From: Longimicrobiales bacterium
GTDB lineage: Bacteria; Gemmatimonadota; Gemmatimonadetes; Longimicrobiales; Gaopeijiaceae
Direction: 5' to 3'
Assembly: GCA_965202805.1 (NCBI GenBank)
Contig: OZ241869.1
Location: 1,824,001-1,888,000 of the forward strand
DNA: 64,000 bases
The stretch's first letter is position 1. Every line of letters starts with the position of its first letter. A program made the translations under genes and the position numbers. Under the pieces are notes generated by a model that searched no databases, was not told the DNA's origin, and worked only from the letters and a program-made list of their open reading frames with translations. Shown one piece after another: positions 23,156-43,596 of this stretch.

Positions 23156-24307
23156 ATGGAACGACCGAGGAAACTAACCGCGGGTTTCGTCAAGGCAGTC
23201 CGGCGGCCCGGCCGATACGGGGACGGACGCGGAGGCTTCGGGCTGTCGCTGCTGGTCAAGCCCACGTCGACCGGACGGATCAGCAAGACGTGGGCGCAGC
23301 GCCTCTACATCAACGGCAGGCCCGTGAACCTGGGGCTGGGGGCGTATCCGCTGGTGACGTTGAAGGAGGCGAGAGTCAAGGCGCTCGAGAACCGGCGCAC
23401 GCTGGAGCGGGGGATGGACCCCAGGAGCGACGGCACACCGACGTTCGCGCGAGCCGCCGAGAAGGTGATCGCGATCCACAGGGCGAACTGGAAGCCGGGC
23501 AGCGACACCGAGCAGCAGTGGAGGCAGAGCCTGCGCGAGTACGTCTACCCGAAGATCGGGGACAAGACGGTGGACGAGATCACGACGACGGACGTGATGG
23601 CCATCCTGCTGCCGATCTGGAACGAGAAGCGGGTGACGGCGACGCGGGTGCGCAACAGGATTTCGGCGGTGATGAGGTGGGCCGTCGCGCAGGAGTACAG
23701 GGAGGGGAATCCGGCCGGCGACACCATCGCGGCCGCACTGCCCAGGAACGAGGTTCGAACGGTCCACCATCGCGCGCTGCCTCACACCCAGGTTGCGCGG
23801 GCGCTGGCGAGAGTGCGTGCGAGCACGTCGCAGCCCATGACCAAGCTGGCATTCGAGTTTCTCGTTCTGACCGCGTCCAGATCGGGCGAGGCCCGGAGTG
23901 CGAGATGGGCCGACATCGACGCCGGGGCCGCCACATGGACCGTGCCCGCCAAACACATGAAGACGGGACGCGAGCACCGGGTGCCGCTGTCCTCACGCGC
24001 GCTCGAAGTGCTCGCCCAGGCGCGCCATCGATGCAGGGGATCCGAGCTGGCGTTCCCCTCCCCGGCCGGCCGCAAGCTGACCGGCAACACGTTCTCCCTG
24101 CTCTGCCGGCGCCTTGAAATCGCCGCCGTTCCGCACGGCTTCCGTTCCTCGTTCCGCGACTGGTGCGCCGAGCGCGGCGTACCCCGCGAGGTCGCCGAAT
24201 CCGCGCTCGCGCACGCGGTCAAGGGCGTCGAGGGCGCTTACCTGCGATCCGATCTCTTCGAGCAACGGCGGGAGATCATGGAAGCATGGGCCGACTACGT
24301 GCGGTAA
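23156..24307 (+). CDS. Tyrosine recombinase/integrase (P4-like, with arm-binding domain)
   Basis: KLTA..PGRYGDG..GL.L.V N-terminus; catalytic LTASRSGE, MKT..HRVPLS, HGFRSSFRDW, LAH, AY.RSD. Appears intact. Confidence 0.92.
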   Translation: MERPRKLTAGFVKAVRRPGRYGDGRGGFGLSLLVKPTSTGRISKTWAQRLYINGRPVNLGLGAYPLVTLKEARVKALENRRTLERGMDPRSDGTPTFARAAEKVIAIHRANWKPGSDTEQQWRQSLREYVYPKIGDKTVDEITTTDVMAILLPIWNEKRVTATRVRNRISAVMRWAVAQEYREGNPAGDTIAAALPRNEVRTVHHRALPHTQVARALARVRASTSQPMTKLAFEFLVLTASRSGEARSARWADIDAGAATWTVPAKHMKTGREHRVPLSSRALEVLAQARHRCRGSELAFPSPAGRKLTGNTFSLLCRRLEIAAVPHGFRSSFRDWCAERGVPREVAESALAHAVKGVEGAYLRSDLFEQRREIMEAWADYVR

Positions 24308-24392
24308 CCGCGGGAGATGCATCGCGCGCATAACCCTGATAATAGCGGCATGGTCGTGTAGTCGTATCACATTGTCATGATGTGAGTTAAGG

Positions 24393-27300
24393 ATGGTCGG
24401 TGCCGGTGAGTACATCCGGTCTTCGGCCGTGGTCGGCAACGTAGTTGCCGCGGACGCGATGATGAGCGGCGGCGACGGTCAGCCCGAGACGCTGGCGGGC
24501 GTGACGGTCACGCTCGGCGGCGAGCACGCCATGGGCGAGACCATGGAGACCGACATGAGCGGCGGCTTCGCCTTCACCGGGCTCCGCGCCGGCACCTACA
24601 CGGTCACCATCTCGGACTTCCCGGAGGACGTCTCCTTCGAGGAAGTGAGCCTCGAGATCTCGGTCGAGGTGGGCGAGGTCGGCCAGGCCGACTTCACGGG
24701 CCACTTCATCCGCACGTCCGCGGTCGAGGGCCAGGTGATCATCGAGGGCGAGGGCCTTGCCGGGGTGACGGTCACCCTGAACGGCGGGCCGGCCGACGAG
24801 AGCTACACGATGATGACCGACGCCGACGGCATGTACCGGTTCGAGGAACTGCGCCCCGGCGACTACACGGTCAGCATCAGCGACTTCGACACCCGCGACT
24901 ACGAGTTCGCGGCCACGTCCCAGGACGTGAGCGTGGACCTGGACGAGACCGGAACGGTGTCGTTCACCGGCGTCCTGCTCCGGACTTCGGGCATCGCCGG
25001 CCGGGTGAGCGTCGAAGGCATGGGCCTCGGCGGCATCGAGGTCACGCTGTCGGGCGGAGAGGAAGCCCAGACGGCGATGACCGACGACGGCGGCCAGTAC
25101 AACTTCGCGGGCCTGGCGGCTGGCGACTACACGGTCTCGATCGCGGTCGAGAGCGACGCCTACGTGTTCGAGTCGATGAGCTCGGACGTGACGGTCGGTG
25201 ACGACGAGTCGAAGATCGTCAACTTCGAGGGCATGCACGCGAGGACCGCGAGCGTGTCCGGCATGGTGTTCCTCGACGAGGCGACCAAGAACGACATGCA
25301 CGACGAGGGCGAGCATCCTCTGGCGCACGCCGGCATTCCGGTGGCGCTGGTGGGCCCGGGCGTCAACGAGCAGCGGCTGGGCGCGACCGACGCGACCGGC
25401 GCCTTCTCGTTCTCGGGTCTCCGCTCCGGCCCGTACCAGCTGGTCGTCCTCATCGACGCCACGGTGGCGGCTGCACTCGCGGCCAACGACGTGGCGTACG
25501 GCGGACCGGCGACCGGCTACGAGATCGCTCTCGGTGTCGGCGAGGCCGCATCGCAGGGGATTCCGTTCGACATCACGCACACGACCGTGAACTTCACGGT
25601 GATGCTGAGGCATGGCGACGACATGGGTGCGGCGGTTCCCGGCGCCAGCGTCACGCTCTACTCCGACGCGGACGGCGAGAACAAGGTCGGCAGCGGCGAC
25701 ACCGGCGACGACGGCTCCGTGGCGATCAAGGTCGCGCGTGGCTACACCAGCGGGAACATGGTGCACGCGGGCGTGTCCGCAGACGGTTACACCGGCGAAG
25801 GCATGACGGCCGTGTCGTGGGATCCGCAGATGTTCGCAACCGCGGCCTCCAACAGCCACGACCTCGTCAACCTGAGCGTCGACGCGACGGTCAGCGGCGC
25901 GACGGTCGAGACCGAGTACGGTGGCGGCAAGGCACTCGGCGGCTGGGCGATGAGCGTCATGTCCGGCGACGATGCGGTTGATGGCGCACCCGAGATGCTG
26001 GACGACGAGGGCAACGCGGCGTTCATGACCACCGTCGGAGCCGACGACCTGCCCGCGACCTACACCTTCGCGGTCGCCGACGACCAGGACGACAAGCTGG
26101 ACGGCGGCGAGAAGTACGCCGGGACCTCGGTCGAGTACACGCACACCGGTCTCGCGCTGGCGGGCACGATGGACGCCGGCACGATGGAGGTGGCGTACAC
26201 GACCCAGACCCTAAAGGTCTACGTGCACCACGAGCGCGACCAGGTGATGGGCTACACCGGCAACATCCTGGGCGGTGACGCGAGGGACGATGGCCAAGTC
26301 TCCGTCAGCATCCGCTACATCGATGGCAACGGCCGCTCCCGTGCGTTCGCGACTGCGGACAAGATCTCGAGCCCGGACAACAACGGTAGCAAGGGTGTCT
26401 GGACCTTCAGCAACGTTCCGGCCGACAGGAAAGTCATCGTGCAGGCGGAAGCGGCTACGGGCGTGGAGAACATCAAGCTCCTCGATCCCGACGAGCTCGC
26501 GGCGTACACGATGATGGACGTCAACGGCATCACGGGCGGCGCCTTCGGCGAGATGGGCGGCTTCAACCACACGGTCGAGCTCTGCCCGCTGCAGGCCACC
26601 ACGCCCCAGGACCACGACGAGTGCGCATCGTTCGCCTACGTGACCACGTACACCGTGAGCGGGCAGGTGTGGAAGAACACCGTCAAGATGAAGGGCGACG
26701 ACTTCGACACCGGTGATGACGACGATGGCATCACCACGTTCGTACCCGGGCAGACGGTCAGCCTGTCGCCGGTCGAAGGCGAGAACCTCGCCGGTGAGGA
26801 AGAGTCCCACACCACGACGGAGAAGGCGGTCAAGGGACCGGGTGAGACCTCCAAGGGGAATGAGGTACTCGACGAGACGCACCAGTTCAACTTCGGCGCG
26901 GTGGCCGCGGGCGTTTACGAGCTCAGCGTTCCGTCCGGATGGCGGGCGAAGATGGGCGACATGGATGCCACGGACGATGTCGACGACGCGTTCGACCCGC
27001 TCGAGGGCGAAGTCACGCTCGACGTTACGCCGGCGACGGCTACCCTGTTCGGACGCGTGGACGGCACCGACGGCTTCCCGCTCGACAGCGTGACCGTGAC
27101 CGTGAACGGCCTGTCGGCCATGACCGACGCGTCCGGTCGCTACATCATCGACGGCATCGCTCCGGCGACGCGCAAGATCGGCAGCGCGACGCACAGGAAC
27201 AGCATCTTCGTGGAGGCCTCCCGCAAGGGCTACACCGTCGCAAAACTCGATCCCATCACTTTTGGCACGGGAGCCGAGACCAAAGCGAACAAGACGACGA

Positions 27301-28751
27301 GGCAGGACATCGACCTGGCGGGCGTCCAGTCACGTGCCACGTTCAGCGGCAAGGTCATTGCTTCCAACGGCGGCGCACCGATCGCCGGCGTGGAAATCCT
27401 GGTGGACGATGAGGCACCGCTCAACGCGGCGACGAGCGGCGCGAACAAGGGCAAGCTCGTGACGGGCGCCGACGGCACCTTCACGGCGGAGGCCAAGGCC
27501 AAGACACTGGGCGATATCGCCAACGTGTCGGCGCAGAAGGACGGTTGGACCTTCGTACCCGCCGCGTACCCGGCCGCGGCCCACCCCGGAGCGGAGACGG
27601 CGAGCATCACCTTCTCCGGCTTCGTGAACGCCACGATTATGGGCAGAGTGGCCGCTCCGGGCGGCGGACCCATAAGCGGTGTCATCGTCACGGCGACGCC
27701 GGCAGCCGGCGGCGATGTCGCGGATGCCGACACCACGGGCGTGACGGGAAGCTTCTCGCTCAGCGTGTCGGGGGTCGGCGGCAGCTACAATCTGGCAGCC
27801 ACGCTGGCGAACCACACCTTCGAGCTCCCATCTCAGTACCGACAGGTGGTCAACGTCGCTCCGGGCCAGACCGTGAACATCGGCACCATCCAGGCGATGA
27901 CGTTCGCAGCCAGCGGCGTCGGCGCGTCGCGGTTGCGTGTGCTAGACGATGAGGACACCGACGACGACGAATCCGATCCCTCGCGGTACGTCTCCGCCGG
28001 CGGCGCTGGCAACGTCAGGGTGGCTTGGAAGGCGGGCACCGTGCCTGACGGACACATCGTCAGCTACCAGGCCCAGACCAAGGTCGGCGATGGTAACTGG
28101 GCGGACTTTGGCACCGCTGTCACGTCGGACGCCTTGGCGGGGGCTTCGCCCACAGACTCGACGGCAAGGCGCGGGGATGCCCCAGCCGCCAGCGATGGCG
28201 GGTTCATGGTTCGCGTCGTGTCCACCAGCGACAACGGCACGGCTGGAGACACGACCGACGATCCCGACGCGATCAACAGTGCTGAGGTTGACGTTGCGGC
28301 GATCGATCCGTCGGCCAGCGGTGTGAAGGCGAGGCGTCAGGCGGCAGCAGACTCAGACGAGGGGGCTGCGACCGGCGACTTCATCCAGGCCAGCTGGACC
28401 GCCGTGACGAGTGATGACTCCGACTTCCGGGTCGTTGCCCAGGTCACGCCCGCCGTTCTGCAAGGAAGCACGGTGTGGGTGGTCTTGGTGGCTCCGACTA
28501 CCGGCACTGGCACGGAAAGAGAGCTTGTCTCGGCTGAGATCGACGACACTTACTCCACGGCCCTGACTGTGGCTGAGCCCTCCGGCACGGGGACTCAGAC
28601 GGTCACCGTCACCGCAGCCGACCTCAGAAAGGCCATCAAGGTCGCTGTCGAGTCGGTGCAGGGTACCGCGGATGCCACGGATGACGGCCCGAAGTGGAAG
28701 CGCTCCGGGGCAGTTGATCTCGATGCGAGGGAGGAGTCCAGCGGCAGCTAA
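24393..28751 (+). CDS. 5'-truncated paralog (probable silent cassette) of the large Ig-like/carboxypeptidase-regulatory-like repeat surface lipoprotein
   Basis: From 24402 it is colinear with 38959-43251 (minus strand) but lacks the signal peptide, lipobox and first domain. Nearly identical N-terminal part, divergent C-terminal part. Confidence 0.8.
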   Translation: MVGAGEYIRSSAVVGNVVAADAMMSGGDGQPETLAGVTVTLGGEHAMGETMETDMSGGFAFTGLRAGTYTVTISDFPEDVSFEEVSLEISVEVGEVGQADFTGHFIRTSAVEGQVIIEGEGLAGVTVTLNGGPADESYTMMTDADGMYRFEELRPGDYTVSISDFDTRDYEFAATSQDVSVDLDETGTVSFTGVLLRTSGIAGRVSVEGMGLGGIEVTLSGGEEAQTAMTDDGGQYNFAGLAAGDYTVSIAVESDAYVFESMSSDVTVGDDESKIVNFEGMHARTASVSGMVFLDEATKNDMHDEGEHPLAHAGIPVALVGPGVNEQRLGATDATGAFSFSGLRSGPYQLVVLIDATVAAALAANDVAYGGPATGYEIALGVGEAASQGIPFDITHTTVNFTVMLRHGDDMGAAVPGASVTLYSDADGENKVGSGDTGDDGSVAIKVARGYTSGNMVHAGVSADGYTGEGMTAVSWDPQMFATAASNSHDLVNLSVDATVSGATVETEYGGGKALGGWAMSVMSGDDAVDGAPEMLDDEGNAAFMTTVGADDLPATYTFAVADDQDDKLDGGEKYAGTSVEYTHTGLALAGTMDAGTMEVAYTTQTLKVYVHHERDQVMGYTGNILGGDARDDGQVSVSIRYIDGNGRSRAFATADKISSPDNNGSKGVWTFSNVPADRKVIVQAEAATGVENIKLLDPDELAAYTMMDVNGITGGAFGEMGGFNHTVELCPLQATTPQDHDECASFAYVTTYTVSGQVWKNTVKMKGDDFDTGDDDDGITTFVPGQTVSLSPVEGENLAGEEESHTTTEKAVKGPGETSKGNEVLDETHQFNFGAVAAGVYELSVPSGWRAKMGDMDATDDVDDAFDPLEGEVTLDVTPATATLFGRVDGTDGFPLDSVTVTVNGLSAMTDASGRYIIDGIAPATRKIGSATHRNSIFVEASRKGYTVAKLDPITFGTGAETKANKTTRQDIDLAGVQSRATFSGKVIASNGGAPIAGVEILVDDEAPLNAATSGANKGKLVTGADGTFTAEAKAKTLGDIANVSAQKDGWTFVPAAYPAAAHPGAETASITFSGFVNATIMGRVAAPGGGPISGVIVTATPAAGGDVADADTTGVTGSFSLSVSGVGGSYNLAATLANHTFELPSQYRQVVNVAPGQTVNIGTIQAMTFAASGVGASRLRVLDDEDTDDDESDPSRYVSAGGAGNVRVAWKAGTVPDGHIVSYQAQTKVGDGNWADFGTAVTSDALAGASPTDSTARRGDAPAASDGGFMVRVVSTSDNGTAGDTTDDPDAINSAEVDVAAIDPSASGVKARRQAAADSDEGAATGDFIQASWTAVTSDDSDFRVVAQVTPAVLQGSTVWVVLVAPTTGTGTERELVSAEIDDTYSTALTVAEPSGTGTQTVTVTAADLRKAIKVAVESVQGTADATDDGPKWKRSGAVDLDAREESSGS
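24402..24442 (+). repeat. 41-bp perfect inverted repeat, left copy (candidate recombination site)
   Basis: GCCGGTGAGTACATCCGGTCTTCGGCCGTGGTCGGCAACGT is the reverse complement of 43211-43251. Confidence 0.85.
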
Positions 28752-28764: not shown

Positions 28765-28850
28765 CCATCAGTCTGGCTGGCTCGCCACCAGTCAGGCTGA
28801 TGGTCGCAGGACGGCTCACCCCCCGTTCGGGATCCCCGGGCGGGGGGTGA
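28765..28850 (+). terminator. Conserved intergenic double hairpin (terminator or mRNA stability/processing element), copy 1
   Basis: CCATCAGTCTGGCTGG..CCAGTCAGGCTGATGG, then TCACCCCCCG..CGGGGGGTGA; homolog at 38859-38945. Confidence 0.6.
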
Positions 28851-28897
28851 CGCCCGTTATGGAGCTACCATCGAATCCCCGATGCGGAGACGGCACG

Positions 28898-31800
28898 ATG
28901 ATTCCGAAGCAGCCTGGCTGGTCCATGCGTTCCCTCTTGGCCGCCGCGGCGATCTGCGCGTTCGCGGCGCCACCGACCGGGGTGCGCGCCGAGGAGCCGT
29001 CCGCGGACGGTTGGGACGAAGTGGTCCGGTCGATCGCGGAACCTCCGGCGGCGCGCGCGGCTGTCCGCCCCTCGACCCATATATCATGGCGCTGGATCGG
29101 GCCGCCCGCACAGGACTCTGCCAGGCTCGATATCCGCTTCGCGGCAAGCGTGACCGGCTTCACGGACGCCGACTTCGTTATCAGTTGCGCGCCCGTGACT
29201 GCGGCGTGCGCGGAGGTTGCGCCGTTCAGCACCGCCAGCGCCGCGCGCTTTTCCGTCACGCTGAGGATGCCGCAGGACTATGATGGCTTTGTGACCGTCC
29301 ATATCCCCGAGAACATGGCGGAGGACGCTGACGGCGATGGGAACCTCCAGTCGAATCAGCCCGTCATCCCCGTGGACACGAGGGCCCCTCGTTTCACCCT
29401 CGCAACGATCAACGGCGACGAAGTCGTCATCGACTTCGACGAAAACCTCAATGAGAGCGCCGTCCCGGCAGTCGGCGACTTTGCCGTTTCCTTCACCAGG
29501 AGCGGTAATTACCGCACAAGGACCGTATCCGCGGTCGAGGTGTCGGCGAGAAAGGTGTTCCTGAGCCTGGAGGGCCCCGTCGAGCAGGGCGATGTGGTTT
29601 CGGTGTTCTATGACGACAGAGGCGACAACGGGCTCCGGGACCGTGTAGGCAATCGAGTGTTCGGCGGCACTTGGCAGGTGGTAAACGTCACCGGGACGAC
29701 GCGCACCGGGCTTCCCGGCGCGCCGCGCAACCTGACCGCCGAGGCCTACGGCCCCACGGCCATCGATCTGGACTGGCTTGCCCCGACCGCGGACGGCGGC
29801 GCCAGGATCACGGCGTACCGGATTGAGGTGTCGGAGAACGGCGGCGATCCCTGGGCGACTCTGGTGCGCAGCACCCCGGACACCGTAACCGCCTACCGTG
29901 ATGAGGACGTTTCGGCGGGCGACACGCGCCACTACAGGGTGTCGGCGATCAACTTCAACGGCACGGGACCCGTCTCCAACGTGGCTCGCGCCACCACGGA
30001 GGAGGTCGCGCCCAGCGCTCCCCGGCGATTAACGGCGCGGGCCAGGGGGACGTCGGCCATCGAGCTGAGATGGAGCGCCCCCTCCTCCAGCGGCTCGTCG
30101 CCGATCACCGGCTACCGCATCGAGTCGTCGCCCACGGGAACCGGCCGCTGGACCGAGCTCGTGGCCAACACCACGGCCACCACCTACACCGACGACGACC
30201 TCAGGCCCAACACGACGCGCCACTACCGCGTCCTGGCCATCAGCCGGGCGGGCCGGAGCGAGTGGTCGAACACCGACCACGCGACCACCGAAGTGGCCTT
30301 GCCGGGCCCGCCCAGGAGCCTGAGTGTGATGCCGAGCGGCTTGAGAGGAAGCGACCAACTCCTCCTCACCTGGTCGCTCCCGGTCGACGACGGCGGGAGC
30401 GAGATCACCGGCTACCTGATCGAGAGGTCCGCCACCCGTGTCGGCGTCTGGCTACCGCTCGTGACCAACACCGGCAACGCGGACCGCATCTACACCGACA
30501 GCAATCTCAGTCCCGCCACCACCTGGTTCTATCGCGTGTCCGCGATCAACAGCAAAGGGGTGGGACGCGCCTCCAGCGTGGCCAGCGGCACCACCAAGGC
30601 CGCGCGTCCCGGGCCACCGCAACGCGTGCGTGCGCTCGCGACCGGACCGAACAGCATCCGCCTCGCCTGGGACCCGCCGGAGACCGATGGCGGGGAGCGC
30701 GTCACCGGCTACGCCATCCAGAGGATTGGGCCCAACGACAACGCCTGGATCACCCACCGTTCCGACACGGGGACGAGGGCAACCACGTTCACGGACACCG
30801 GACTGGAGCCGGTGACCCGGTACCGGTACCGGGTCGCGGCCATCAACGGCGTGGGCCGGGGGGAGTACTCGCCGGCGCCCCCGTTGCCCCCGGCGGCGGC
30901 CATCACGCACGCCGACTTCGCCGGGGTCCCGACCGGGCTGACGGCGCGGGCGGTGGGCACGGCGCGCATCGACCTTGCGTGGAACGCGCCCCGCTACACG
31001 GGCGGCGTCTCGATCATCGGCTACCGCATCGAGGCCTCCGACGACGGGGGCTCGACCTGGAATATCATCCGCCGCAACACGAGCGCGAGGACGACGACGT
31101 ACTCCGACGTGAACCTCCGGCCCGCGACCACGCGGCACTACCGGGTCGCGGCGATCAACCTGGCGGGGGTGGGGAAGTTCTCCAACACGGCGCGGGCGAC
31201 CACCGACGCGACCCTTCCGGGGGTGCCGCGACGTCTCAGCGCCGACGCGGTCGGCACCTCGCAGATCGGCCTCTCCTGGCAGGCGCCCTCGGACGACGGG
31301 GGCGCACGTGTGACCGGCTACCGCATCGAGGTGTCGGCCGACGGGGGCAGGAGCTGGGAGGACCTGGTGGCCAACACGCGCACTACGGCCACCATCCACA
31401 CCCACACCGGCCTCGCGCCGGCCTCGACGCGGCACTACCGCGTCTCGGCGATCAACCGGATCGGCGTGGGCAATGCGTCGCGGGTCGCGGGCTCGACGAC
31501 GGACGCCACCGTGCCGGACGCGCCCACCGGGCTCATGGCCAACGACGTCACGCCCACGCAGATCGACCTCGCGTGGATCGCGCCTGCCTACAACGGCGGA
31601 GCCCGCATCACCGGCTACCGCATCGAGGTCTCGGAGACGGGCGCCGTCTGGGTCGACCTGGAGACCAACACCCAGTCCACGGTCACCGCCTACTCGCATA
31701 CCGGGCTGCTGCCGGGGAGCGTGCGCCACTACCGCGTCTCGGCGATCAACCGGGCGGGCACCGGCGCGCCGTCGGGGAGCGCTTCGGCCGCAACCGACGA

Positions 31801-33199: not shown

Positions 33200-33413
33200 A
33201 GGAAACCCGACGTATCTCGATCGCATCAGAGCCGTGCGCACATGGGCACTTGGCAGCTTGCGCCGCAAGAGACGATTCACGGCACCCGAACACACTACAG
33301 GTAGTAGTAGGGGCGCGTTAGCATACCATAGGTAGTAGTGCGAGACTTCTGCGGCGCAGACTGGAGTGTTACCGGCACACCGACGAGGTACAACGCAGGA
33401 CGGCTCAGGATCG

Positions 33414-33659: not shown

Positions 33660-34002
33660 CCAACTGCTCGTTCTCGGGATCGTTTTCGGGATCGGGGGTC
33701 GTGTCCTCGCCGAGGACGCCATCGGCGTACCGTAGGCGCGTTCTTTGCAGCAGCATGAAAGCTTCCCATTCCGGCGTTCGCATGGCTTCTGGCGACCAGG
33801 GTTCTGCTCCCCATTCGCCGCGAATCGCTGATGAGAGTTCTTCCTGCAATTCGTCGAGGGCGGCTGCCAGCTTCAGTTGAGTTGTGGGCGGGAGGGCCGC
33901 AATCAACGAGCCCAAGAACTTCGCGATGGTCAAAAGCGATAGAGTGTTGGCCCAAGTGGCGTCGTCAACCGGCGTCTGGGTCGCGGGGGGCTGGCTCGTC
34001 AC
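33643..34002 (-). CDS. Hypothetical protein
   Basis: GTG start overlaps the GIY-YIG-like stop (GTGA). Confidence 0.45.
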   Translation of the reverse strand: MTSQPPATQTPVDDATWANTLSLLTIAKFLGSLIAALPPTTQLKLAAALDELQEELSSAIRGEWGAEPWSPEAMRTPEWEAFMLLQRTRLRYADGVLGEDTTPDPENDPENEQLDGRSR

Positions 34003-34208
34003 GGTCCCGTTGGACGGCCCTTTCTGCGCTGCTCGTGCTCCCACTGTCGGGCGGCCTGCAGAGAGTGCCGGTATCCCTCTTTCATCATGTAGGCGCCAGC
34101 TCCGAACCTGCGCTTATGCTCTTGCTCGCGGCGTTCCGGATTCCTAGTGATTCCAACATGCACCGTCCTCCGGTTCCGCACGATGCGGTACAGCGTGTAC
34201 GTTGCCAT
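33999..34208 (-). CDS. Minimal GIY-YIG nuclease-like protein
   Basis: 69 aa; YTLYRI..VHVGITRNPERREQEH..A..WE; RBS AGGAGG. Confidence 0.65.
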   Translation of the reverse strand: MATYTLYRIVRNRRTVHVGITRNPERREQEHKRRFGAGAYMMKEGYRHSLQAARQWEHEQRRKGRPTGP

Positions 34209-34516
34209 CCATGCCTCCTGACGAAGGTTGCGATCAGGTGAATCATAACAGTTGTCGGAGACGCCTACAATCCGGTTTCAGACCGTCAACGGTCGCAGTG
34301 CATCAGCCGTCGCCCGACCTGCCCGATGACGTGCTGCATCGTCCGCAGGGATAGCCTCAATCCCCTTGCGCGGACGTTGCAAGTCCGCGCACACGTTGGT
34401 GATACGGGCCACCTGACGGGGAGCGTGAGACGATGGCTGAACGGGCGGGAGCAGTTGCGCCAGCGCGCCACGCGCGGCAGGGACTGGCTGACCTGGAATG
34501 CCAGCGCGCGTTTCAT

Positions 34517-37500
34517 CTACCGCAATCTGATCCGTCCGCGGACACCCACCGAGTGCTGCGCCCCAGCGGGACCGCTCTCGCGCCGCGTGCCCTCAAGGCG
34601 CAGCCCGACGCCCGCGCCGAGGTCGTAGCGCACGCCGCTTGAGAAGGCGCGCGCCCCGCCCCCGGCGAGGTGGAAGCCGCCGTAGGGCGTCCCCTGGAAG
34701 CCGGCGATGCCGTAGGCCACCTCGCCGTCCACGCTGGGGCCCGTGCCCAGGCCGTGGCCGCCCATCGCGTCGGAGACCCCGCGCTCCCAAAGCTGGTCCA
34801 CCCCACTCCTGTGGTCGCCGTATGAAGGTGCCACCCGGATCGAGAGTCCCTCGCCCCGGGCCGCCGGGTCGAGCATGAGCGTGCCGCCGAAGCCCCACTC
34901 CTCGTAGCCTTCGCGCGAAGAGAGGACGAAGCGGCCGCGGCCCTCCGCGGTCACGCCCAGGCGGGAGTTCGTGTAGCGGAGTCCGCCCCCGACTTCCGCG
35001 CCGGCGCCGTTCACACCGTCGCCGTTGTCGTATCGCATCCCGCCCTCGAGCACGACTGCGAGTTCGTGCCCGGTGTCGGTGCGGAAGCCCTGCGTCAACT
35101 CCAGGGCGAGCTTGCCGCGCTGCATGTCGAGCGTGACCGCCTCAATCTGCGCGCCGCCGTCGACCTTGACCCGGCTGTACCAGCCCTCGGCCTTGATGCG
35201 GATGCCACGCGCGCCGCTGTCGAGTAACTGGTAGCCGGCGCCTCCCGCTCCCGTCAGCATGCTGGCCGGGCTGGTGCGGAGTCCCTCGCGCACGTCGTCG
35301 ACCTCGATTTCGCCCCGGCCGAGACCGGCCGAGCCCCACACCGAGGTGCCGCGCGCGTCGGAGAACCACGCCAGGTAGGGATGCACGCCGGTCATGGTGG
35401 CGCCATAGGTGCCCCTCACCGGGCTGGCGCCGGTCTTGTCGGTGAAGTCGAAGCCGCCGGAGGAGTACGAGCCCGCGACACCCGCCAGGATGTCCGGTCC
35501 CACCCGCACGTCCACGCCGGCGTGGGCGCTCACCATGTTGCCCTTCCAGTCGAGGGCGCTCGCGCCGGGCTCGCCGAGGTGGTGATACTCGCCGCCGCCC
35601 CAACTCGCCAGTTGCGTGCCGGTGGACGACTGCTGCTGCGCGCCCGACGCCCGGAACGGCATCTGGAAGGAGGTGCCGCCGAAGAGCGCGGCCAGTCCGG
35701 CTTGATCGCCTTGGGCGAGGCCCAGCCCGCCCGCGCCCGGCGCCGACAGGCTCGCGGCCATCGACGAGAGTCCGTTCGTCTCCACGCGCCGCTCCATCCC
35801 CATCCCGCTGGCTACCACGTCCACCCGGCGGGCGATCGCCGAGACCGTGCTCGACGTCATCGCGGCCGCCACGTGCGGCAGGACGCTCGTGTTCAGCCGC
35901 CCCGCGCGCTGGACGGGGTCGTCCGTGGCCGCCGAAGCGCTCCCCGACGGCGCGCCGGTGCCCGCCCGGTTGATCGCCGAGACCCGGTAGTGGCGCACGC
36001 TCCCCGGCTGCAGGCCGGTGTGCGAGAAGGCGGTGACCGTGGACTGGGTGTTGGTCTCCAGGTCGACCCAGGCGGCGCCCGTCTCCGAGACCTCGATGCG
36101 GTAACCCGTGATGCGCGCGCCGCCGTTGTAGGCGGGCGCGACCCAGAACAGGTCGATCTGCGTGGGCGTGACGTCGTTGGCCATGAGCCCGGTGGGCGCG
36201 TCGGGCACGGTGGCGTCCGTGGTCGAGCCCGCGACCCGCGACGCATTGCCCACGCCGATCCGGTTGATCGCCGAGACGCGGTAGTGCCTCGTCGAGGCCG
36301 GCTCGAGCCCGCCGTGCGTGTAAATGGTGGCCGGGGTGCGCGTGTTGGCCACCAGGTCCTCCCAGCTCCTGCCCCCGTCGGCCGACACCTCGATGCGGTA
36401 GCCGGTGATGCGCGCACCCCCGTCGTCCGAGGGCGCCTGCCAGGAGAGGCCGATCTGCGAGGTGCCGACCGCGTCGGCGCTGAGACGCCGCGGCACCCCC
36501 GGAAGGGTCGCCTCGGTGGTCGCCCGCGCCGTGTTCGAGAACTGCCCCACCCCCGCCAGGTTGATCGCCGCGACCCGGTAGTGCCGCGTGGTCGCGGGCC
36601 GGAGGTTGACGTCGGAGAACGTCGTCGTCCTCGCGTTCGTGTTGCGGCGGATGATGTTCCAGGTGCCGCCCCCGTCGTCGGAGGCCTCGATGCGGTAGCC
36701 GATGATCGAGACGCCGCCGGTGTAGCGGGGCGCGTTCCACGCCAGATCGATGCGCGCCGTGCCCACCGCCTGGGCCGTCAGCCCGGTCGGGACCCCGGCG
36801 AAGTCGGCGTGCGTAAGGGCCGTCGCCGGGAGCGCCGGGGGCATCGGCGACCATGCCCCTTCGCCCACGCGGTTTATGGCCCGAACCCGGTAACTGTACC
36901 GGGTCACCGGCTTGAGCCCGGTGTGCGTGAAGGTCCTCGTCGTCGTCCCCGTGTTACGCTCGAGATCGATCCACGAGTTGTCGTTGGGCCCTTGCACCTG
37001 GATGCCGTAGCCGGTGACGCGCTCCCCGCCATCGTTCTCCGGCGGGTCCCAGGCGAGGAGGATGCTTTTCGGTCCGGTCGCGCGCGCACGCACGTTCTGC
37101 GGCGGCCCGGGCGGCGCCGCGGTGGTCATCGCGTTGCGCACGCTGGATGGAGGTCCCGTCCCCTGGCTGTTGACCGCGGACACGCGATAGAACCAGGTGG
37201 TCGCGGGTCTGAGGCGGGTGTCGAGGTAGGTGGTGGTCGTGCTGTTGGTGCTGGGCACCAGGATGATCCAGCCCGTGTTGCCGTTGGGGGACCTCTCGAT
37301 GCGGTAGCCGGTGATGGCGCTCCCGCCGTTGTCGGACGGAGCCGACCATGTGAGGAGGAGCTGGCCGCTTCCCCTCAAGCCGCTCGGGGTCACCCTGAGC
37401 CCCGTCGGCCGGCTCGGAACGGTGACCTCGGTGGTGGCCCGGGCGGTGTTCGACCAATCGCTGTGGCCCGCCCGGGTGATGGCCCTGACCCGGTAGTGGC

Positions 37501-38803
37501 GGGTGGTGCCGGCACTCAGGTCGCGGTGGGTGTAGGTGGTGGACGTGGTGTTGGCCACGCGCACGCTCCAAGGGTCGTTTCCCGTGAGCGACGACTCGAT
37601 GCGGTAGCCGGTGATCGGCGACGAGCCCCTGGTCGAGGGGGCGCTCCAGCTCAGCTCGATGGCCGACGTCCCCCTGGCCCGCGCCGTCAATCGCCGGGGA
37701 GCGCTGGGCAGCACATGCTGCGTGGTGGCGTCGGCCACGTTGGACGGGTCTCCCACCCCATTGAAGTTGATCGCCGAAACCCTGTAGTGGCGCGTCTCGC
37801 CCCCGGAGAGACCCGTGTGGCTGTAGCTGGTGTCGGTGTTCCGGGTATTGCGCACCAGATTGGACCAGGTGGTGCCGGCATTCGTCGACACCTCGATCAG
37901 GTACCCGGTGATCCTGGCGCCGCCGTCCGAGCTCGGCGGATCCCACTCCAGGTCGATCGTGTCGGTGCCGACGGCCTCCGCCGTGAGGTTGCGCGGCTCG
38001 CCGGGGACTCCGGTGCGCGTCGTCCCGGTGAGGTTCCGCGCCACGCGGTCGAAGCGGAGCGCGAGATTGCCGACCGCGTCCCTGGCCGCGTTGTCGCCGC
38101 CGGCGCCGTAGAACACGCTCACCTCGTCGCCCCGCTCGACGGGGCCCTCCAAGAGCAGAAATATTTCGTCCGCCGACAGCTCGACCTCGGATACCCGCCT
38201 GGTGTGGAACGTGCCGCTCCGGATGAAGGACACGGAGAAGTCGCTGGCCGACGGGACGAAGTCGTCATCGAGGTCTTCGTCGAAGACGACGACGACCTCT
38301 TCGCCGTTGACCTTCACCTCGTCCACCTCCGGGGCCTTGTTGTCAACGCGGAAGTCGTGTGTCCTGGCTCTGCTCTCTTCGCCTCGCCTGTTCTCTGCCG
38401 CGCCCGCAGGGATGGTGACGATTACCGTGCGGTCATAGTCCGGATCCGTGATGAGGTGGAGCGCGTAGTTCGAGCAATAGTCCGCGTCGCAGTCCTCCAG
38501 GACATCCTTGGTGGCGCCGAAGACCTCGATCTCCCCGATCGTGAGACCGGTCACGGCCTGCGAGAAACCGATGTTGATGCGGATTTCCTCGTGCACGGAC
38601 CCCGTGAAGGTATGCGAAAGCCTGACCGTGGGGGCGACTGCCGCGCGCGCTGCAGCAACTCCCGCGGCGGACCGGACTCCCTCATCCCAGCCATCCGCGG
38701 ACGGCTCCTGAGCGCGCGCGCGCGTCGGTGGAACCAGGAACGCGCAGATCGCTGCGGCAGCCAGAATGGGACGAACGGGTACGCCAGGCTGATTCGGAGT
38801 CAT
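34517..38803 (-). CDS. Fibronectin type III repeat protein with autotransporter-like beta-barrel, copy 2
   Basis: Inverted paralog of 28898-33199; divergent N-terminus, near-identical C-terminal half. Confidence 0.88.
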   Translation of the reverse strand: MTPNQPGVPVRPILAAAAICAFLVPPTRARAQEPSADGWDEGVRSAAGVAAARAAVAPTVRLSHTFTGSVHEEIRINIGFSQAVTGLTIGEIEVFGATKDVLEDCDADYCSNYALHLITDPDYDRTVIVTIPAGAAENRRGEESRARTHDFRVDNKAPEVDEVKVNGEEVVVVFDEDLDDDFVPSASDFSVSFIRSGTFHTRRVSEVELSADEIFLLLEGPVERGDEVSVFYGAGGDNAARDAVGNLALRFDRVARNLTGTTRTGVPGEPRNLTAEAVGTDTIDLEWDPPSSDGGARITGYLIEVSTNAGTTWSNLVRNTRNTDTSYSHTGLSGGETRHYRVSAINFNGVGDPSNVADATTQHVLPSAPRRLTARARGTSAIELSWSAPSTRGSSPITGYRIESSLTGNDPWSVRVANTTSTTYTHRDLSAGTTRHYRVRAITRAGHSDWSNTARATTEVTVPSRPTGLRVTPSGLRGSGQLLLTWSAPSDNGGSAITGYRIERSPNGNTGWIILVPSTNSTTTTYLDTRLRPATTWFYRVSAVNSQGTGPPSSVRNAMTTAAPPGPPQNVRARATGPKSILLAWDPPENDGGERVTGYGIQVQGPNDNSWIDLERNTGTTTRTFTHTGLKPVTRYSYRVRAINRVGEGAWSPMPPALPATALTHADFAGVPTGLTAQAVGTARIDLAWNAPRYTGGVSIIGYRIEASDDGGGTWNIIRRNTNARTTTFSDVNLRPATTRHYRVAAINLAGVGQFSNTARATTEATLPGVPRRLSADAVGTSQIGLSWQAPSDDGGARITGYRIEVSADGGRSWEDLVANTRTPATIYTHGGLEPASTRHYRVSAINRIGVGNASRVAGSTTDATVPDAPTGLMANDVTPTQIDLFWVAPAYNGGARITGYRIEVSETGAAWVDLETNTQSTVTAFSHTGLQPGSVRHYRVSAINRAGTGAPSGSASAATDDPVQRAGRLNTSVLPHVAAAMTSSTVSAIARRVDVVASGMGMERRVETNGLSSMAASLSAPGAGGLGLAQGDQAGLAALFGGTSFQMPFRASGAQQQSSTGTQLASWGGGEYHHLGEPGASALDWKGNMVSAHAGVDVRVGPDILAGVAGSYSSGGFDFTDKTGASPVRGTYGATMTGVHPYLAWFSDARGTSVWGSAGLGRGEIEVDDVREGLRTSPASMLTGAGGAGYQLLDSGARGIRIKAEGWYSRVKVDGGAQIEAVTLDMQRGKLALELTQGFRTDTGHELAVVLEGGMRYDNGDGVNGAGAEVGGGLRYTNSRLGVTAEGRGRFVLSSREGYEEWGFGGTLMLDPAARGEGLSIRVAPSYGDHRSGVDQLWERGVSDAMGGHGLGTGPSVDGEVAYGIAGFQGTPYGGFHLAGGGARAFSSGVRYDLGAGVGLRLEGTRRESGPAGAQHSVGVRGRIRLR

Positions 38804-38945: not shown

Positions 38946-38958
38946 TGTTGAAGGGTGA

Positions 38959-41900
38959 CTAGCTGCTTGCCGGGTCGGCGGCGACGTCCTTCGTCTCGGT
39001 CGCCTTCCAGACTTCCTCGTCGTCGTCGTCGACCTCTTCGGCCTGTCGCGTCTCGACACGGACCTTGAGCGCCTTCCGGAGGTCGGCCTCAGTCACGTTC
39101 AGCTCCTGAGTGCTGCCCGCGATGGTCCAGTCTGCTGCCGTGAAGCCACTAACGACGAGCACCGCGCTCGTCGCATCGGTGCCGCCAGCAGTCAAAGCAA
39201 GCTCGGCTGCGTCTTCGGCGATGAGCGACTGCGTTCCGGCCGCTCCCATATCGAGCGTGATGACGACTCGCGTAGCGGTTCTGGAGTTCGTCGAGACTTC
39301 CCAGTTGACGATGAGGCTGTCGGCAGTCGCACCTGCTTGAGTATCACGCACTGCAGTGATCTTGCTGGGCGATGCGTCGACCCGAGCAACGGACCTCATG
39401 CCAGAGTTGCCCGTGCGCGTCTCGGTGCTGGCGTCCGCCAGTGTCTCGGTCGCCGAGACGCTGACCCGGACGCTGAAGCCGAGGTCGCCCTCGTTGCTGT
39501 CCGGGGCAGTGAACGTACCTACCCTGACGCCCTCAGTCACATTGTCTTCGGTGTCGGCGCTGCCATCGGGCGCGAAGGACCCGTCCGTCCAGGTGGCACC
39601 GGCTTCGCCGCAATCCGCAACGCAATGCTCGACTGTGTGCGTGATGGCGCTGAAGCCGGAAACATCGGCATCGAACTGCCAGCGGATGTTGACCGCCCCG
39701 GTGTAGTTGCCGGTGGTTGCGTCCTTCACCCGCGACGTGGTGATGCTCCTGGCGTTGACGCTCACTCCGGTGATGTTGCCGAAGTTCACGGTTTGACCGG
39801 GAGCAACACGGACATCTTGCTCGTCGTCGGGATAGCTGAAGCGCGTGAGGCTGGTCGCCGGCGCCGCGGCTGTGATCGTGTAGCGGTCGTACGGCACGCT
39901 GAGCGAGAAGCTTCCCGTTCTGCCGGTCGTGGCGGTAGCCGTCGCCTCAGCGCCTTCTACGCCCGCCTCCGTCGCCGTGACGGTAACGCCGCTCATCGGC
40001 CCGCCACCCGGACGAACCACTCTACCGCTGATCGTGGCGTTCACGAAGCCGGTGAAGTTGAAGCCCGAGACGGCCGAACCGGCGTGCGCGGGAATGTCAT
40101 CGATCTCATCAGGCACGAAGGACATGCCATCCTTCGAGACCCTGAGCCAGACTCCGTCGCCCCGGTCCTGGGCCTTGACCATCACCGTGTAGCTGCCGTC
40201 GGCGCCCGTCAGATGAATGTCGTTCTTCGTGGCGCCCTTCGACTTCGCGTTCTTGTTCTCCGGGGCCTCGTACTTGGTGCCATCGTAGCTCACCTCGACC
40301 TTCACGCCCGGAATCCCATCGCCGCTGCCGGAGGCAGTGACCCTACCGCTGATCGAGGCCGTCTCGGCCGCAGCCGTGAGCTTGAGGTCGTTGCCGTCAT
40401 CGTCCTCCACCTTCTTCACCGTGTTGGCTGCGAATGTGAGGGTCACGCTGGCCTTGCCGACGTCTGCGACCGAGGCCTCCACGAAGATGCCGGTCACCTT
40501 CTTCTTGCTGACGGTGCGCGTCTCCGACTTGATGCCCTCGATAATGAAGCGGCCATGCTGGTCGGTCATGGTCGACGCATTGTTCGCGGTCACGGTCGCG
40601 CTGTCCATGGCGAAGCCTTCATCGTCGACGATGAATCCGTAGACGGTCGCCGTGGCCGGTCTGACGGTGAGGTCGACAGGTCCCTCGATCGGTTCGAACA
40701 TGTCGTCGGCGTCTCCACCGTTCGCCTCCCACCCATCGGAGACGCTGAGCGAGTAGGCACCCGCCGCGACATCGGCGAAGGTGAACGCACTCATCGGGTT
40801 GTCGCCCTTGGTCTTGTCCGAACGGGTGTCCTTCTCCGTGGTAGTGAAGGACTCTTCCTCACCCGCCAGATTCTTGCCGTCGACCGGGCTCAGGCTGACC
40901 GTGACCCCTGCCTCGGTGTCTTCTTCCTCCACGGCCTTGAAGTCGTCGCCGTCATCCATTGCGACGGTTTGCTTCGTCACGGTCCCGCTCACCTCGTAAG
41001 TGGTCACGTAGGCGAACGACGCGCACTCGCCGTGATCCTGAGGCGCGGTAGCCTGCAGCGGGCAAAGCTCGACCGTGTGGTTGAAGCCGCCCATCGCACC
41101 GAAGGCGCCACCGGTGATGCCGTTGACGTCCATCCCCGTGTATGCCGCGAGCTCGTCGGGCTCGAGGAGTTTGATGTTCGTGTCATCGGCAACCTTGCTC
41201 GCCTGGACGATGACGTTCTCGTCGGCGGGCACGTTGCTGAAGGTGTGCACGCCTTTGCTGTTGCTGCTCTCGATGCTGTCCGCGGCCACGAACGCACGGG
41301 AGCGCCCGCTACCGTCGATGTAGCGGATGCCGACATCGACCATGCGGTCGTCACCGCTGCCGTCCCTCTCGTCGCCATCCAGGAGATTGCCGGTATAGCC
41401 CATCACCTGGTCGCGCTCGTGGTGCACGTAGACCTTGAGGGTCTGGGTCGTGTACTGCACCTCCATCGTGCCGGCGTCAACGGTGCCCGCCAGCTTGAGA
41501 CCGGTGTGCGTGAGCTCGACCGAGCCCGGATCGTAGTCCTCGCCGCCGTCCAGCTTGTTGTCCTGGTCGTCGGCGACCGCGAAGGTGTAGGTCGCGGGCA
41601 GGTCGGCGGCCGTCACGGTCGTCTTGAACGCCGCGTTGCCCTCGTCGTCCAGCTTGTCGGGCGCGCCATCAACCGCATCATCGCCGGACATGACGCTCAT
41701 CGCCCAGCCCTTCAGCGCCTTGCCTCCACCGTAGTCGGTGGTGATCGTCGCGCCGCTGACCGTCGCGTCGACGCTCAGGTTGACGAGGTCGTGGCCGTTG
41801 GAGCCCGCGGTTGCGAACATCTGCGGATCCCACGACACGGCCGTCATGCCGTCGCCGCTGTAGTCCTCGTGGGAGACGCTCGCGTGAACCATGTTCCCGC

Positions 41901-43596
41901 TGGTGCCGGCGCGCGCGACCTTGATCGCCACCGAGCCGTCGTCGCCGGTCTCACCGCTGCCGACCTTGGTCTTGTCATCCCCAGCCGAGTCGTAGAGCGT
42001 GACGGACGCGCCGGAAACCGCAGCGCCGGTGTCGTCGCCGTGCTTCAGCATCACCGTGAAGTTCACGGTCGTGTGCGTGATGTCGAACGGAATCCCCTGC
42101 GAAGCGGCCTCGCCGACTCCGAGAGCGATCTCGTAGCCGGTCGCCGGTCCGCCGTACGCCACGTCGTTGGCCGCGAGTGCCGCCGCCACCGTGGCGTCGA
42201 TGAGGACGACCAGCTGGTACGGGCCGGAACGCAGACCCGAGAACGAGAAGGCGCCGGTCGCGTCGGTCGCGCCCAGCCGCTGCTCGTTGACGCCCGGGCC
42301 CACCAGCGCCACCGGAATGCCGGCGTGCGCCAGAGGATGCTCGCCCTCGTCGTGCATGTCGTTCTTGGTCGCCTCGTCGAGGAACACCATTCCCGACACG
42401 CTCGCGGTGCGCGCGTGCATGCCCTCGAAGTTCACGATCGCCGACTCGTCGTCGCCGACCGTCACGTCCGTGCTCATCGACTCGAACACGTAGGCGTCGC
42501 TCTCGACGGAAATCGAGACCGTGTAGTCGCCGGCCGCCAGGCCCGCGAAGTTGTACTGGCCGCCGTCGTCGGTCGTCGCCATCTGGGCCTCCTCTCCGCC
42601 CGACAGCGTGACCTCGATGCCGCCGAGGCCCATGCCTTCGACGCTCACCCGGCCGGCGATGCCCGAAGTCCGGAGCAGGACGCCGGTGAACGACACCGTT
42701 CCGGTCTCGTCCAGATCCACGCTCACGTCCTGCGACGTGGACGCGAACTCGTAGTCGCGGGTGTCGAAGTCGGAGATCGAGACCGTGTAGGAGCCGGGGC
42801 GCAGTTCCTCGAACCGGTACATGCCGTCGGCGTCGGTCATCATCGTGTAGCTCTCGTCGGCGGGACCGCCGGAGAGCGTCACGGTGACGCCCGCAAGGCC
42901 CTCGCCCTCGATGATCACCTGACCCTCGACCGCGGAGGTGCGGATAAAGTGTCCCGTAAAGTCGGCCTGGCCGACCTCGCCCACCTCGACAGAGATCTCG
43001 AGGCTTACTTCCTCGAAAGAGACGTCCTCGGGGAAGTCCGAGATAGTGACCGTATAGGTGCCGGCGCGGAGCCCGGTGAAGGCAAAGCCGCCGCTCATGT
43101 CGGTCTCCATGGTCTCGCCCATGGCGTGCTCGCCGCCGAGCGTGACTGTAACGCCCGCCAGCGTTTCGGGCTGGCCGTCGCCGCCGCTCATCATCGCGTC
43201 GGCCGCTACCACGTTGCCGACCACGGCCGAAGACCGGATGTACTCACCGGCGAAGTTGAGTTGCACGTTCTGACCATCGGTCGCGATGGTCGCGGACTGC
43301 GTCACCTGGGCGAACGTCGCGTCCTCGGGGAAGCCGCTGATTGTGACCGTGTAGGTCCCGGCTTCCACGCCCGAGAAAGCGAAGCTGCCACCCGACCCCG
43401 TCGTCGTGGTCGCACCCGACGACAGAGTGGCGGTGATGCCGCTGGCGGCCGTCCCTTCAATCGTCACCGTCCCGGAGATGGTCCCCACGGGAGTCGGCGG
43501 CGGGGGCGGCTCCACAGGCGGCGGAGTGCCCTCGTCGCAGGCGGTGAAGGTCAGGGCCATCAGCGTTGCTGTGGCGAGGAGCTTGAGTCGGTTCAT
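38959..43596 (-). CDS. Large acidic surface lipoprotein with carboxypeptidase-regulatory-like/SdrD-B-like Ig repeats (full-length copy)
   Basis: RBS AGGAGG, lipoprotein signal MNRLKLLATATLMALTFTA-C, Pro linker, repeated G.Y.F.GL..G.YTVTIS domains. Confidence 0.88.
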   Translation of the reverse strand: MNRLKLLATATLMALTFTACDEGTPPPVEPPPPPTPVGTISGTVTIEGTAASGITATLSSGATTTTGSGGSFAFSGVEAGTYTVTISGFPEDATFAQVTQSATIATDGQNVQLNFAGEYIRSSAVVGNVVAADAMMSGGDGQPETLAGVTVTLGGEHAMGETMETDMSGGFAFTGLRAGTYTVTISDFPEDVSFEEVSLEISVEVGEVGQADFTGHFIRTSAVEGQVIIEGEGLAGVTVTLSGGPADESYTMMTDADGMYRFEELRPGSYTVSISDFDTRDYEFASTSQDVSVDLDETGTVSFTGVLLRTSGIAGRVSVEGMGLGGIEVTLSGGEEAQMATTDDGGQYNFAGLAAGDYTVSISVESDAYVFESMSTDVTVGDDESAIVNFEGMHARTASVSGMVFLDEATKNDMHDEGEHPLAHAGIPVALVGPGVNEQRLGATDATGAFSFSGLRSGPYQLVVLIDATVAAALAANDVAYGGPATGYEIALGVGEAASQGIPFDITHTTVNFTVMLKHGDDTGAAVSGASVTLYDSAGDDKTKVGSGETGDDGSVAIKVARAGTSGNMVHASVSHEDYSGDGMTAVSWDPQMFATAGSNGHDLVNLSVDATVSGATITTDYGGGKALKGWAMSVMSGDDAVDGAPDKLDDEGNAAFKTTVTAADLPATYTFAVADDQDNKLDGGEDYDPGSVELTHTGLKLAGTVDAGTMEVQYTTQTLKVYVHHERDQVMGYTGNLLDGDERDGSGDDRMVDVGIRYIDGSGRSRAFVAADSIESSNSKGVHTFSNVPADENVIVQASKVADDTNIKLLEPDELAAYTGMDVNGITGGAFGAMGGFNHTVELCPLQATAPQDHGECASFAYVTTYEVSGTVTKQTVAMDDGDDFKAVEEEDTEAGVTVSLSPVDGKNLAGEEESFTTTEKDTRSDKTKGDNPMSAFTFADVAAGAYSLSVSDGWEANGGDADDMFEPIEGPVDLTVRPATATVYGFIVDDEGFAMDSATVTANNASTMTDQHGRFIIEGIKSETRTVSKKKVTGIFVEASVADVGKASVTLTFAANTVKKVEDDDGNDLKLTAAAETASISGRVTASGSGDGIPGVKVEVSYDGTKYEAPENKNAKSKGATKNDIHLTGADGSYTVMVKAQDRGDGVWLRVSKDGMSFVPDEIDDIPAHAGSAVSGFNFTGFVNATISGRVVRPGGGPMSGVTVTATEAGVEGAEATATATTGRTGSFSLSVPYDRYTITAAAPATSLTRFSYPDDEQDVRVAPGQTVNFGNITGVSVNARSITTSRVKDATTGNYTGAVNIRWQFDADVSGFSAITHTVEHCVADCGEAGATWTDGSFAPDGSADTEDNVTEGVRVGTFTAPDSNEGDLGFSVRVSVSATETLADASTETRTGNSGMRSVARVDASPSKITAVRDTQAGATADSLIVNWEVSTNSRTATRVVITLDMGAAGTQSLIAEDAAELALTAGGTDATSAVLVVSGFTAADWTIAGSTQELNVTEADLRKALKVRVETRQAEEVDDDDEEVWKATETKDVAADPASS
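43211..43251 (-). repeat. 41-bp perfect inverted repeat, right copy (inside the full-length lipoprotein gene)
   Basis: Reverse complement of 24402-24442. Confidence 0.85.

Follow-up and report, generated by a model that had tools for sequence, protein, structure and literature searches.

The R64 shufflon, with its short repeated sfx sites and several small unrelated 3' segments or tips, is one of the closest described relatives of the locus considered here. Its recombinase, Rci, descends from phage integrases of the IntP2 subgroup and lacks an arm-binding domain, and integrases of the IntSXT/P4 subgroup insert elements at tRNA, guaA or prfC genes, both according to PMC8138268. In the vsa locus of Mycoplasma pulmonis (recombinase HvsR), the vpma locus of M. 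agalactiae (Xer1) and the vsp locus of M. bovis a tyrosine recombinase encoded next to the locus inverts DNA, according to the passages of PMC2268961 on these systems. The presence of an integrase that does bind arm sites is taken as the mark of a phage or an integrative element. The subject of this report is a candidate inversion locus that contains such an integrase, found at positions 23156..43596 of a stretch of 64,000 nucleotides (the window) from a Longimicrobiales bacterium (assembly GCA_965202805.1, contig OZ241869.1, positions 1,824,001 to 1,888,000 of the forward strand). It is likely that the locus carries out cassette-switch (shufflon-like) phase variation by means of a domesticated integrase of the P4/SXT type, a reading drawn from what the DNA itself holds, namely the layout, its conservation, an intact enzyme, the asymmetry of the promoter and both joins in the genome of one relative.

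Gene pairs, integrase and core site

The source genome is one closed contig of 4.02 Mb with 68% G+C, and the sequencing runs that contain it are mostly labelled as sponge metagenomes or as coded organisms. It is called G000 below, with G001, G005 and so on for its relatives; head denotes the promoter-proximal 5' part of gene A and body the remainder. An earlier reading made from the sequence only had described an integrase and two pairs of surface-protein genes on opposite strands, and the order, strands, 1.3-kb spacer and coordinates of all these genes were confirmed. A tyrosine integrase of 383 aa (23156..24307, plus strand), with an arm-binding domain of the P4/IntSXT type, is followed on the same strand by A' (24402..28751, in an open reading frame (ORF) from 24393) and B' (28847..33199, with a likely start at the ATG at 28898), then by a central spacer of 1,317 bp (33200..34516), and on the minus strand by B (34517..38803) and A (38959..43596).

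A and A' are strings of tandem Ig-like domains (CarboxypepD_reg/SdrD_B in Pfam). A is a full-length lipoprotein with a constant head at 43252-43596 that comprises a signal peptide, Cys20 (the lipoprotein signal being read from the sequence) and the first Ig domain. A' is the headless body of a surface lipoprotein of the same kind, beginning 95 bp past the integrase stop as had been claimed, and it has no signal peptide notwithstanding an in-frame ATG at 24393, such an ATG being present in 1/18 headless copies. The body of A and A' share 68% amino acid identity, dropping from 97% to 36% along the length toward the C-terminus, and B' and B share 75%, with 48% in the N-terminal region; the variants appear to diverge most where exposure is likely, on the C-terminal side of A and at the N-termini of B. 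The B proteins had been described as fibronectin-III (Fn3) autotransporters, of which the Fn3 repeats are found by Pfam in both, and the autotransporter-like C-terminus is seen in an ESM-Atlas feature match of 0.96 to PF03797 clusters but not in the Pfam search of the window proteins, which gave no PF03797 in B or B'. A single-sequence fold of the B C-terminus (pLDDT 33) was not used.

The spacer holds three small ORFs, for which no Pfam families were found, and a 110-bp element (33253-33362) with three further copies in the genome at 85-89% identity. Between A and B a stem-loop of G6/C6 is conserved in both arms (38810-38950; 28760-28850), and it is possible that this is a signal for RNA processing or attenuation.

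The integrase is intact and under purifying selection. Pfam finds the arm-binding (Arm-DNA-bind_3, E 4.7e-12), core-binding (Phage_int_M) and catalytic (Phage_integrase) domains, a match to PRK09692 falling below the cut-off, whilst R242, K269, H327, R330, H353 and Y362 are kept in 17/17 clade members and 12 pairwise comparisons that include the copy of the window give dN/dS values of 0.17-0.37. With three such domains and the RKHRHY residues the protein belongs to the IntSXT/P4-type family, and its earlier description as an intact P4-like integrase is borne out by the arm-binding domain and the six catalytic residues. It is a member of a clade, here called X, with 80-89% identity and 16 full-length copies in 13/19 genomes of the genus, which is monophyletic with support of 100/100; counts of 17 for arm spacing take in one metagenome locus besides the 16 genome copies. 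Records carrying the same integrase are by title mostly Gemmatimonadetes or Longimicrobiales, with several Gammaproteobacteria.

Repeats that flank the integrase gene probably act as its arm sites. An arm-type direct repeat, TGATAAC GGAC AGGATA (23135..23151, plus strand), overlaps the ribosome-binding region of int, and TGATAAC..GGAT stands before 16/16 clade integrases, the strict pattern of this upstream repeat being single copy in G000. The downstream repeat (CATAACCCTGATAA, 24329..24342, plus strand) lies 73-74 nt before the core in 17/17 int-side spacers. It is separated from the core by an AT-rich tract (24343..24401, plus strand), a putative site for a host factor similar to integration host factor (IHF), and in 18 copies the 72 nt before the core have an A+T content of 56-71%, against a genomic G+C of 68%. 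Inside the A bodies nothing conserved of the arm motifs was found by eye or by pattern inspection.

A' opens with a perfect match of 41 bp to A (24402-24442 / 43211-43251), in frame in both copies (AGEYIRSSAVVGNV), which the sequence-only reading took to be the recombination site. That it is perfect and in frame is correct, but it is not a discrete site, as the arms have 28 such perfect runs of 35 nt or more in common, up to a length of 158 nt, and it opens an inverted repeat of 1,260 nt at 94%, the arms being 89% alike over 2,257 nt. The stretch still appears to be special despite lying inside a long diverged duplication. Over the 41 bp A and A' have 0 differences and both differ from a third paralog, A3 (G000:3414492), at 6/41 positions; A' is the same as A3 over 179 nt beginning 10 nt after the match.

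The crossover is more probably a 7-bp core, GAGTACA, than the 41 bp. The integrase-side core reads GCCGGT / GAGTACA / TCCGG (24402..24419, plus strand, with the predicted 7-bp overlap at 24408-24414) and is a fixed junction in 16/16 loci. The head-side core has the same letters (43234..43251, minus strand, overlap at 43245-43239) and falls within codons 116-121 of A. These two cores are the only places in G000 with the string CCGG.GAGTACATCCG. A3 has the heptamer GAATACA and lies in direct (deleting) orientation to the integrase site. The joins in G001 described below confine the crossover to 11 nt, GAGTATATCCG.

The two sides of the locus differ in their promoters. A motif of the sigma-54 type (TGGCACCACCTTTGC, 43670..43684, minus strand) precedes A, according to what we take to be the sigma-54 consensus, and is the only exact match in the window; G000 has four exact matches, two of them before A and A3, and rpoN is present. 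The motif stands before 27/28 heads vs 0/17 int-side spacers. Upstream of it is TAACTGGTTGTCA (43704..43716, minus strand), presumably an IHF site, which is conserved in this promoter class. A scan for sigma-70 promoters around int and A' found nothing. A' and B' would be silent because the promoter and signal peptide are missing, and B is presumably co-transcribed with A. An orphan short A paralog elsewhere in G000 (C1, 2439145-2439822) consists of a head and one domain, 226 aa in all, with a different heptamer and without the exact sigma-54 motif.

In the reaction that we infer from these features the integrase would itself be the catalyst, held by arm repeats either side of its own gene, all of them on the fixed side of the core, and probably assisted by a host bending protein such as IHF. 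The integrase-side core would recombine with the head-side core, at codons 116-121 of the facing full-length A, across the 7-bp overlap, and a segment of 18,850 bp would flip. Reading from the sigma-54 promoter through the signal peptide of the lipoprotein and its first Ig domain would then continue into A' and B' and no longer into A and B, with the previous body parked headless behind the integrase. Because the arms and the head would stay put and the bodies show no arms, the product would equal the substrate, and the reaction should therefore be reversible without an excisionase; any inverted head with the same 7-bp overlap would be usable, distant ones included. No excisionase gene was recognised near int, short excisionases being easily missed, and a small ORF commonly found next to int in the relatives gave weak coiled-coil matches only and is absent from the window.

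Orientation and joins in relatives

The module is conserved in its order. All of the 16 clade-X integrases are followed by the arm repeat, the AT-rich tract and the junction GCCGGN-[7 nt]-TCCG into a headless A, at codon 116 in 12 copies and in 4 at the equivalent motif one Ig domain later. Across five genomes with the integrase the matches that start at the junction sit behind it (5/5), and across five near-complete genomes without it 0/44 matches start there; G013:C27 is a further headless copy, preceded by an integrase with an internal deletion. Heads and integrase-cassettes that share a contig and are no more than 30 kb apart always face each other, which is the case for the window, for both loci of G011 (int-a with its head 22.6 kb away, int-b with a head 28.7 kb away that is broken by a conjugative element), for G102 and for G056. 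Most other clade copies are in fragmented assemblies in which the partner head cannot be placed. A second integrase clade, with 60% identity, occurs in 4/20 genomes of the sister genus g20 and has the same layout, with the junction in the first Ig domain; in G056 a head faces one cassette and in G102 a head faces two tandem integrase-cassette units. The tree leaves the node between clade S and clade X without resolution and shows neither a common origin nor separateness.

The conjugative element of G011, which has an Xer-like integrase, interrupts an A head after codon 10 (L037, G011:C3 1384033; L149, G011:C3 near 1236800). Several other heads match only from nt 22-39, which suggests a second hotspot of insertion in the signal-peptide sequence of heads. 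Two genomes without the integrase clade, G007 and G009, have many full-length A paralogs (~15 and 7), and paralog expansion may replace switching in them.

Evidence that the join is used comes from G001, which is assembled in three contigs. The end of contig 3 reads integrase, core and body X, and body X also stands behind a head, H1, on the opposite strand at a distance of ~630 kb. Just left of the heptamer the two stretches have different bases; from there on 11,394 nt agree completely, and single-base slips occur only toward the contig end. Contig 2 starts with an upstream sequence, head H2 and body Y1, and the identical upstream sequence and head stand on body Y2, which faces Y1 41 kb off; here 13,363 nt agree completely as far as TCCG, and the base after it is the first that differs. 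Each of the two duplicates runs out at a contig terminus, whereas paralogous bodies compared over 3 kb share no more than 73-79%. The heptamer GAGTATA is common to all four sites and absent from the two other heads of G001, and joining the integrase to Y1 or Y2 would reproduce the layout of the window. It appears that the duplicated tips are the footprint of coexisting inversion isomers, of 41 kb and ~630 kb, as an assembler that meets molecules with different joins would give contig tips starting exactly at one site. A mix of near-identical strains would likewise need recombination at the core. Contig 2 was also considered as a true two-headed pair from a second inversion, which was dropped in favour of a duplicated contig tip. 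G011 has two bodies on different heads that match without a difference over 1,428 nt, beginning exactly at the heptamer.

The sequence-only reading had proposed that relatives be compared for the flipped arrangement, and the assembly of G001 contains both joins, in duplications that end at the core. Its central claim, that inversion would fuse the promoter, signal and first domain to A' and change the downstream gene from B to B', is supported by the conserved module of integrase, arm, core and headless body, by the facing heads, by the isomer-type duplications of G001 and by the fact that genomes lacking this integrase have no headless copies either. The claim of a switch between two states holds less generally, as relatives have several heads, several cassettes and one long-range join.

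A number of observations weigh against this reading. The flipped form was not seen in the window's own genome, neither in its one contig nor in contigs of runs X1, X2, X3 and X6 over 23750-43740, which start or stop inside the 41-bp repeat and so neither show the flip nor speak against it. The isomer signature was seen in G001 only; it was found neither in G011, nor in the fetched parts of nine other genomes, nor with a head query in G102 and G056. The integrase heptamer of G012 is CAGTATA vs CAGTACA at four heads, that of G005 is GAGTATA vs GAGTATG and GAATACA, those of G016 and G018 are unmatched among the assembled heads, and three integrase sites have an extra A in the core. Because of the unmatched heptamers and the extra A some loci look frozen, and the mismatched loci may be frozen or have partner heads that are unassembled, the matching of heptamers being a tabulation in which fragmented assemblies lose heads and kin are not independent. 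A scan also found no terminator between int and A', and A' and B' may therefore be read through.

For the genome of the window contig depth is about equal on both arms, at ~45-55 in unique parts (runs X1, X2). An opposite-strand joint in X3 (25723/41931) belongs to another strain, lies within the homologous arms and was not used, and a lower GC3 of the head-attached body as proof of a past flip was dropped, as headless bodies are not consistently low past the first 15 codons. On balance we lean towards this copy switching now, and switching in the population of this genome might have a role in escaping recognition by phage or host.

A different origin for the layout would be an integrative element that replaces genes, in which a circle of A body, B, cargo, int, arms and core integrates into the core of an A gene and gives it a new 3' end, the headless copy being the displaced body and the inverted layout a frozen leftover. 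At 7 loci B is followed 50-130 bp on by a clade-X integrase, six truncated near residue 90-110 and one intact to the contig end, and the two integrase sites of G102 are units in direct tandem; both observations weigh against inversion, point to integration or excision too, and suggest a unit that is spread by integration, possibly as a circle. G005 and G018 carry identical integrases and G011 a nearly identical one, upstream neighbours differ between loci, the orthologous locus of G001 has a hydrolase gene adjoining B-A-head without int-A'-B', and arm-binding integrases normally carry out integration and excision (in the passages of PMC8138268 on them). However, no full-length integrase with a direct-orientation head-A-B upstream was found in the fetched flanks (1.4 to >13 kb), nearby heads always face the cassette, the duplicates of G001 are inverted and end at the core, and no relatives of the integrase were found in the viral contigs examined. 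Gene replacement is thus an unlikely account of the locus as it stands, although the module can have arisen in this way with inversion as what it does today, and it is likely that integration is the origin and route of spread and inversion the present function. The module appears to be mobile between species. Fragments of integrase with the arm domain only (~90-110 aa) are found directly after B, often between converging B genes (L091 4515-4796, L094 8087-8359, L095 3180-3452, L205, L207 and L208), and are pseudogenes or possibly regulators.

Campylobacter fetus sap and other long-repeat systems flip by RecA-type recombination, and the inverted duplication might flip or convert by homologous recombination of this kind with the integrase as a passenger. 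The homology of the arms, 94% over 1,260 nt and 89% over 2,257 nt, would permit RecA-dependent flips and is a further point against the reading preferred here; gene conversion is evident from the mosaic pattern of identity in A, A' and A3, and facing full-length pairs exist without an integrase, for example in G009. Such recombination leaves aside that the junction, arm spacing and integrase are fixed over 16 loci and recur in the second clade, that the identities in G001 and G011 begin or stop exactly at the heptamer and that the integrase is under purifying selection, and we regard it as very unlikely. That the locus is an assembly chimera of two strains with one A-B pair each, a possibility which had been raised earlier, gains something from the genome being metagenome-assembled from a sponge community and from its long repeats, but the single closed contig, the equal contig depth over arms and spacer in X1 and X2, and the identical layout in other genomes make it extremely improbable.

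Genes beside the promoter

Outside the invertible segment, at the promoter, are two genes on the plus strand that accompany many A heads in relatives, at 75-84% identity. The first is a divergent ORF of 287 aa (44056..44919) with a look of a helix-turn-helix (HTH) protein and no family match. The second (44922..45988, the gene running to 45962) encodes a TnpB-like protein (NF040570, E 1.9e-23) that is predicted to be nuclease-dead, as in an alignment with full-length relatives it is without the RuvC-I Asp, the zinc finger and the RuvC-III Asp, the two Asp residues having presumably their usual roles. It ends in a stretch of ~145 nt (45846-45988) that is strongly conserved and then changes abruptly to variable G-rich sequence. 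The fold z-score of this stretch is 0.7, 1/40 pairs has a two-sided change and there is no Rfam match; no convincing target was found for putative G-rich guides. A second type of TnpB-like pair (53%) follows B or A in G001, G008, G011 and G012. The pair occurs even where a genome has no such integrase, and so stands as a lead of its own.

The pair resembles TldR repressors, being a TnpB homolog with an inactivated RuvC. The likeness to TldR, as far as the portions of bioRxiv 10.1101/2023.11.30.569447 on it go, lies in a decayed RuvC, a conserved 3' stretch that may be RNA-like and a position beside a surface-protein gene with paralogs elsewhere; unlike the TldR of that source, the partner is not fliC, oppF or csrA, and here the zinc finger and RuvC-III region are deleted.

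Two other features of the window lie further on. A large Ig/cadherin-like repeat protein (46837-51153, minus strand) has 279-bp repeats and a C-terminus that looks truncated by a GAF-domain fragment (46978-47550, plus strand). At 51702-52127 a tandem repeat of 81 bp in 3-5 copies ends in GCCATTGAC, and G011:C2 has a comparable unit upstream of its hydrolase gene.

Comparison with known systems

No published description of such a system was found in literature searches, which covered subscription journals thinly and are not proof of absence. The parts seen of the survey of gene-altering programmed inversions (Milman et al. 2023, PMC9881135) describe coding sequences swapped between inverted repeats beside 'site-specific integrase' genes, as here; its main text and one supplement make no mention of Gemmatimonadota, fibronectin or carboxypeptidase-regulatory domains, and its larger tables could hold similar loci. 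The portions consulted of a paper on Palauibacterales (PMC10469786) make no mention of integrase or inversion, and those of a review of phase variation (PMC11868660) make no mention of integrase, its passages on shufflons and recombinases being on other systems.

If the reading is true, an integrase of the P4/SXT type acts as a reversible invertase, and the placing of its arms on one side would show how simply a directional integrase can become a toggle, besides offering a new tool for large inversions. It would also be an example of programmed coat switching in a sponge symbiont that has not been cultured, and would point to selection exerted by phages or by cells of the host. A more speculative and rather doubtful extension is a hybrid of integron and shufflon, in which units of int, arms, core, A body and B travel between sponge symbionts, are added singly or in tandem and are switched on by reversible, excisionase-free inversion into whichever facing head has the matching 7-bp overlap, over up to ~630 kb. 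The overlap would then be an address that excludes heads whose use deletes DNA, the system would have arisen at least twice with different crossover sites, and the TldR-like repressor may silence other paralogs.

With the integrases of genomic islands of the IntSXT/P4 type the enzyme shares the N-terminal arm-binding domain (PF13356, which we take to be DUF4102), the RKHRHY residues, the arm repeats and the AT-rich tract. Unlike in those islands, the site lies inside a surface-protein gene, downstream of int, and its partner is inverted, so that in place of direct attL and attR at tRNA, guaA or prfC the sites are inverted and within gene A. No tRNA genes were found in 23 integrase-flanking loci scanned, the window itself being outside this set.

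Like the R64 shufflon, with Rci and pilV, inversion here would exchange the 3' part of a surface-protein gene in frame. Instead of short sites around small unrelated segments there are two unequal sites, an arm side and a head side, and long paralogous arms, the segment being 18.85 kb in the window and 13-41 kb or more among the loci. It is also not an Rci shufflon because Rci is without an arm domain, as the passages of PMC8138268 have it, and this integrase keeps its arm-binding domain and arm repeats.

The closest likeness in predicted outcome is to vsa, vpma and vsp, where, in the passages of PMC2268961, a promoter and a constant lipoprotein 5' region are placed before a silent 3' end. The constant 5' region is here joined to alternative 3' regions by facing sites and in-frame cores, with an intact site-specific recombinase adjacent. 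Unlike those loci, an arm-binding integrase is welded to the silent site, the cassette includes a second gene, B, there are several promoter-bearing heads per genome and the module is mobile between species. We class the locus as a new version of cassette-switch phase variation, with a domesticated and mobile integrase in charge.

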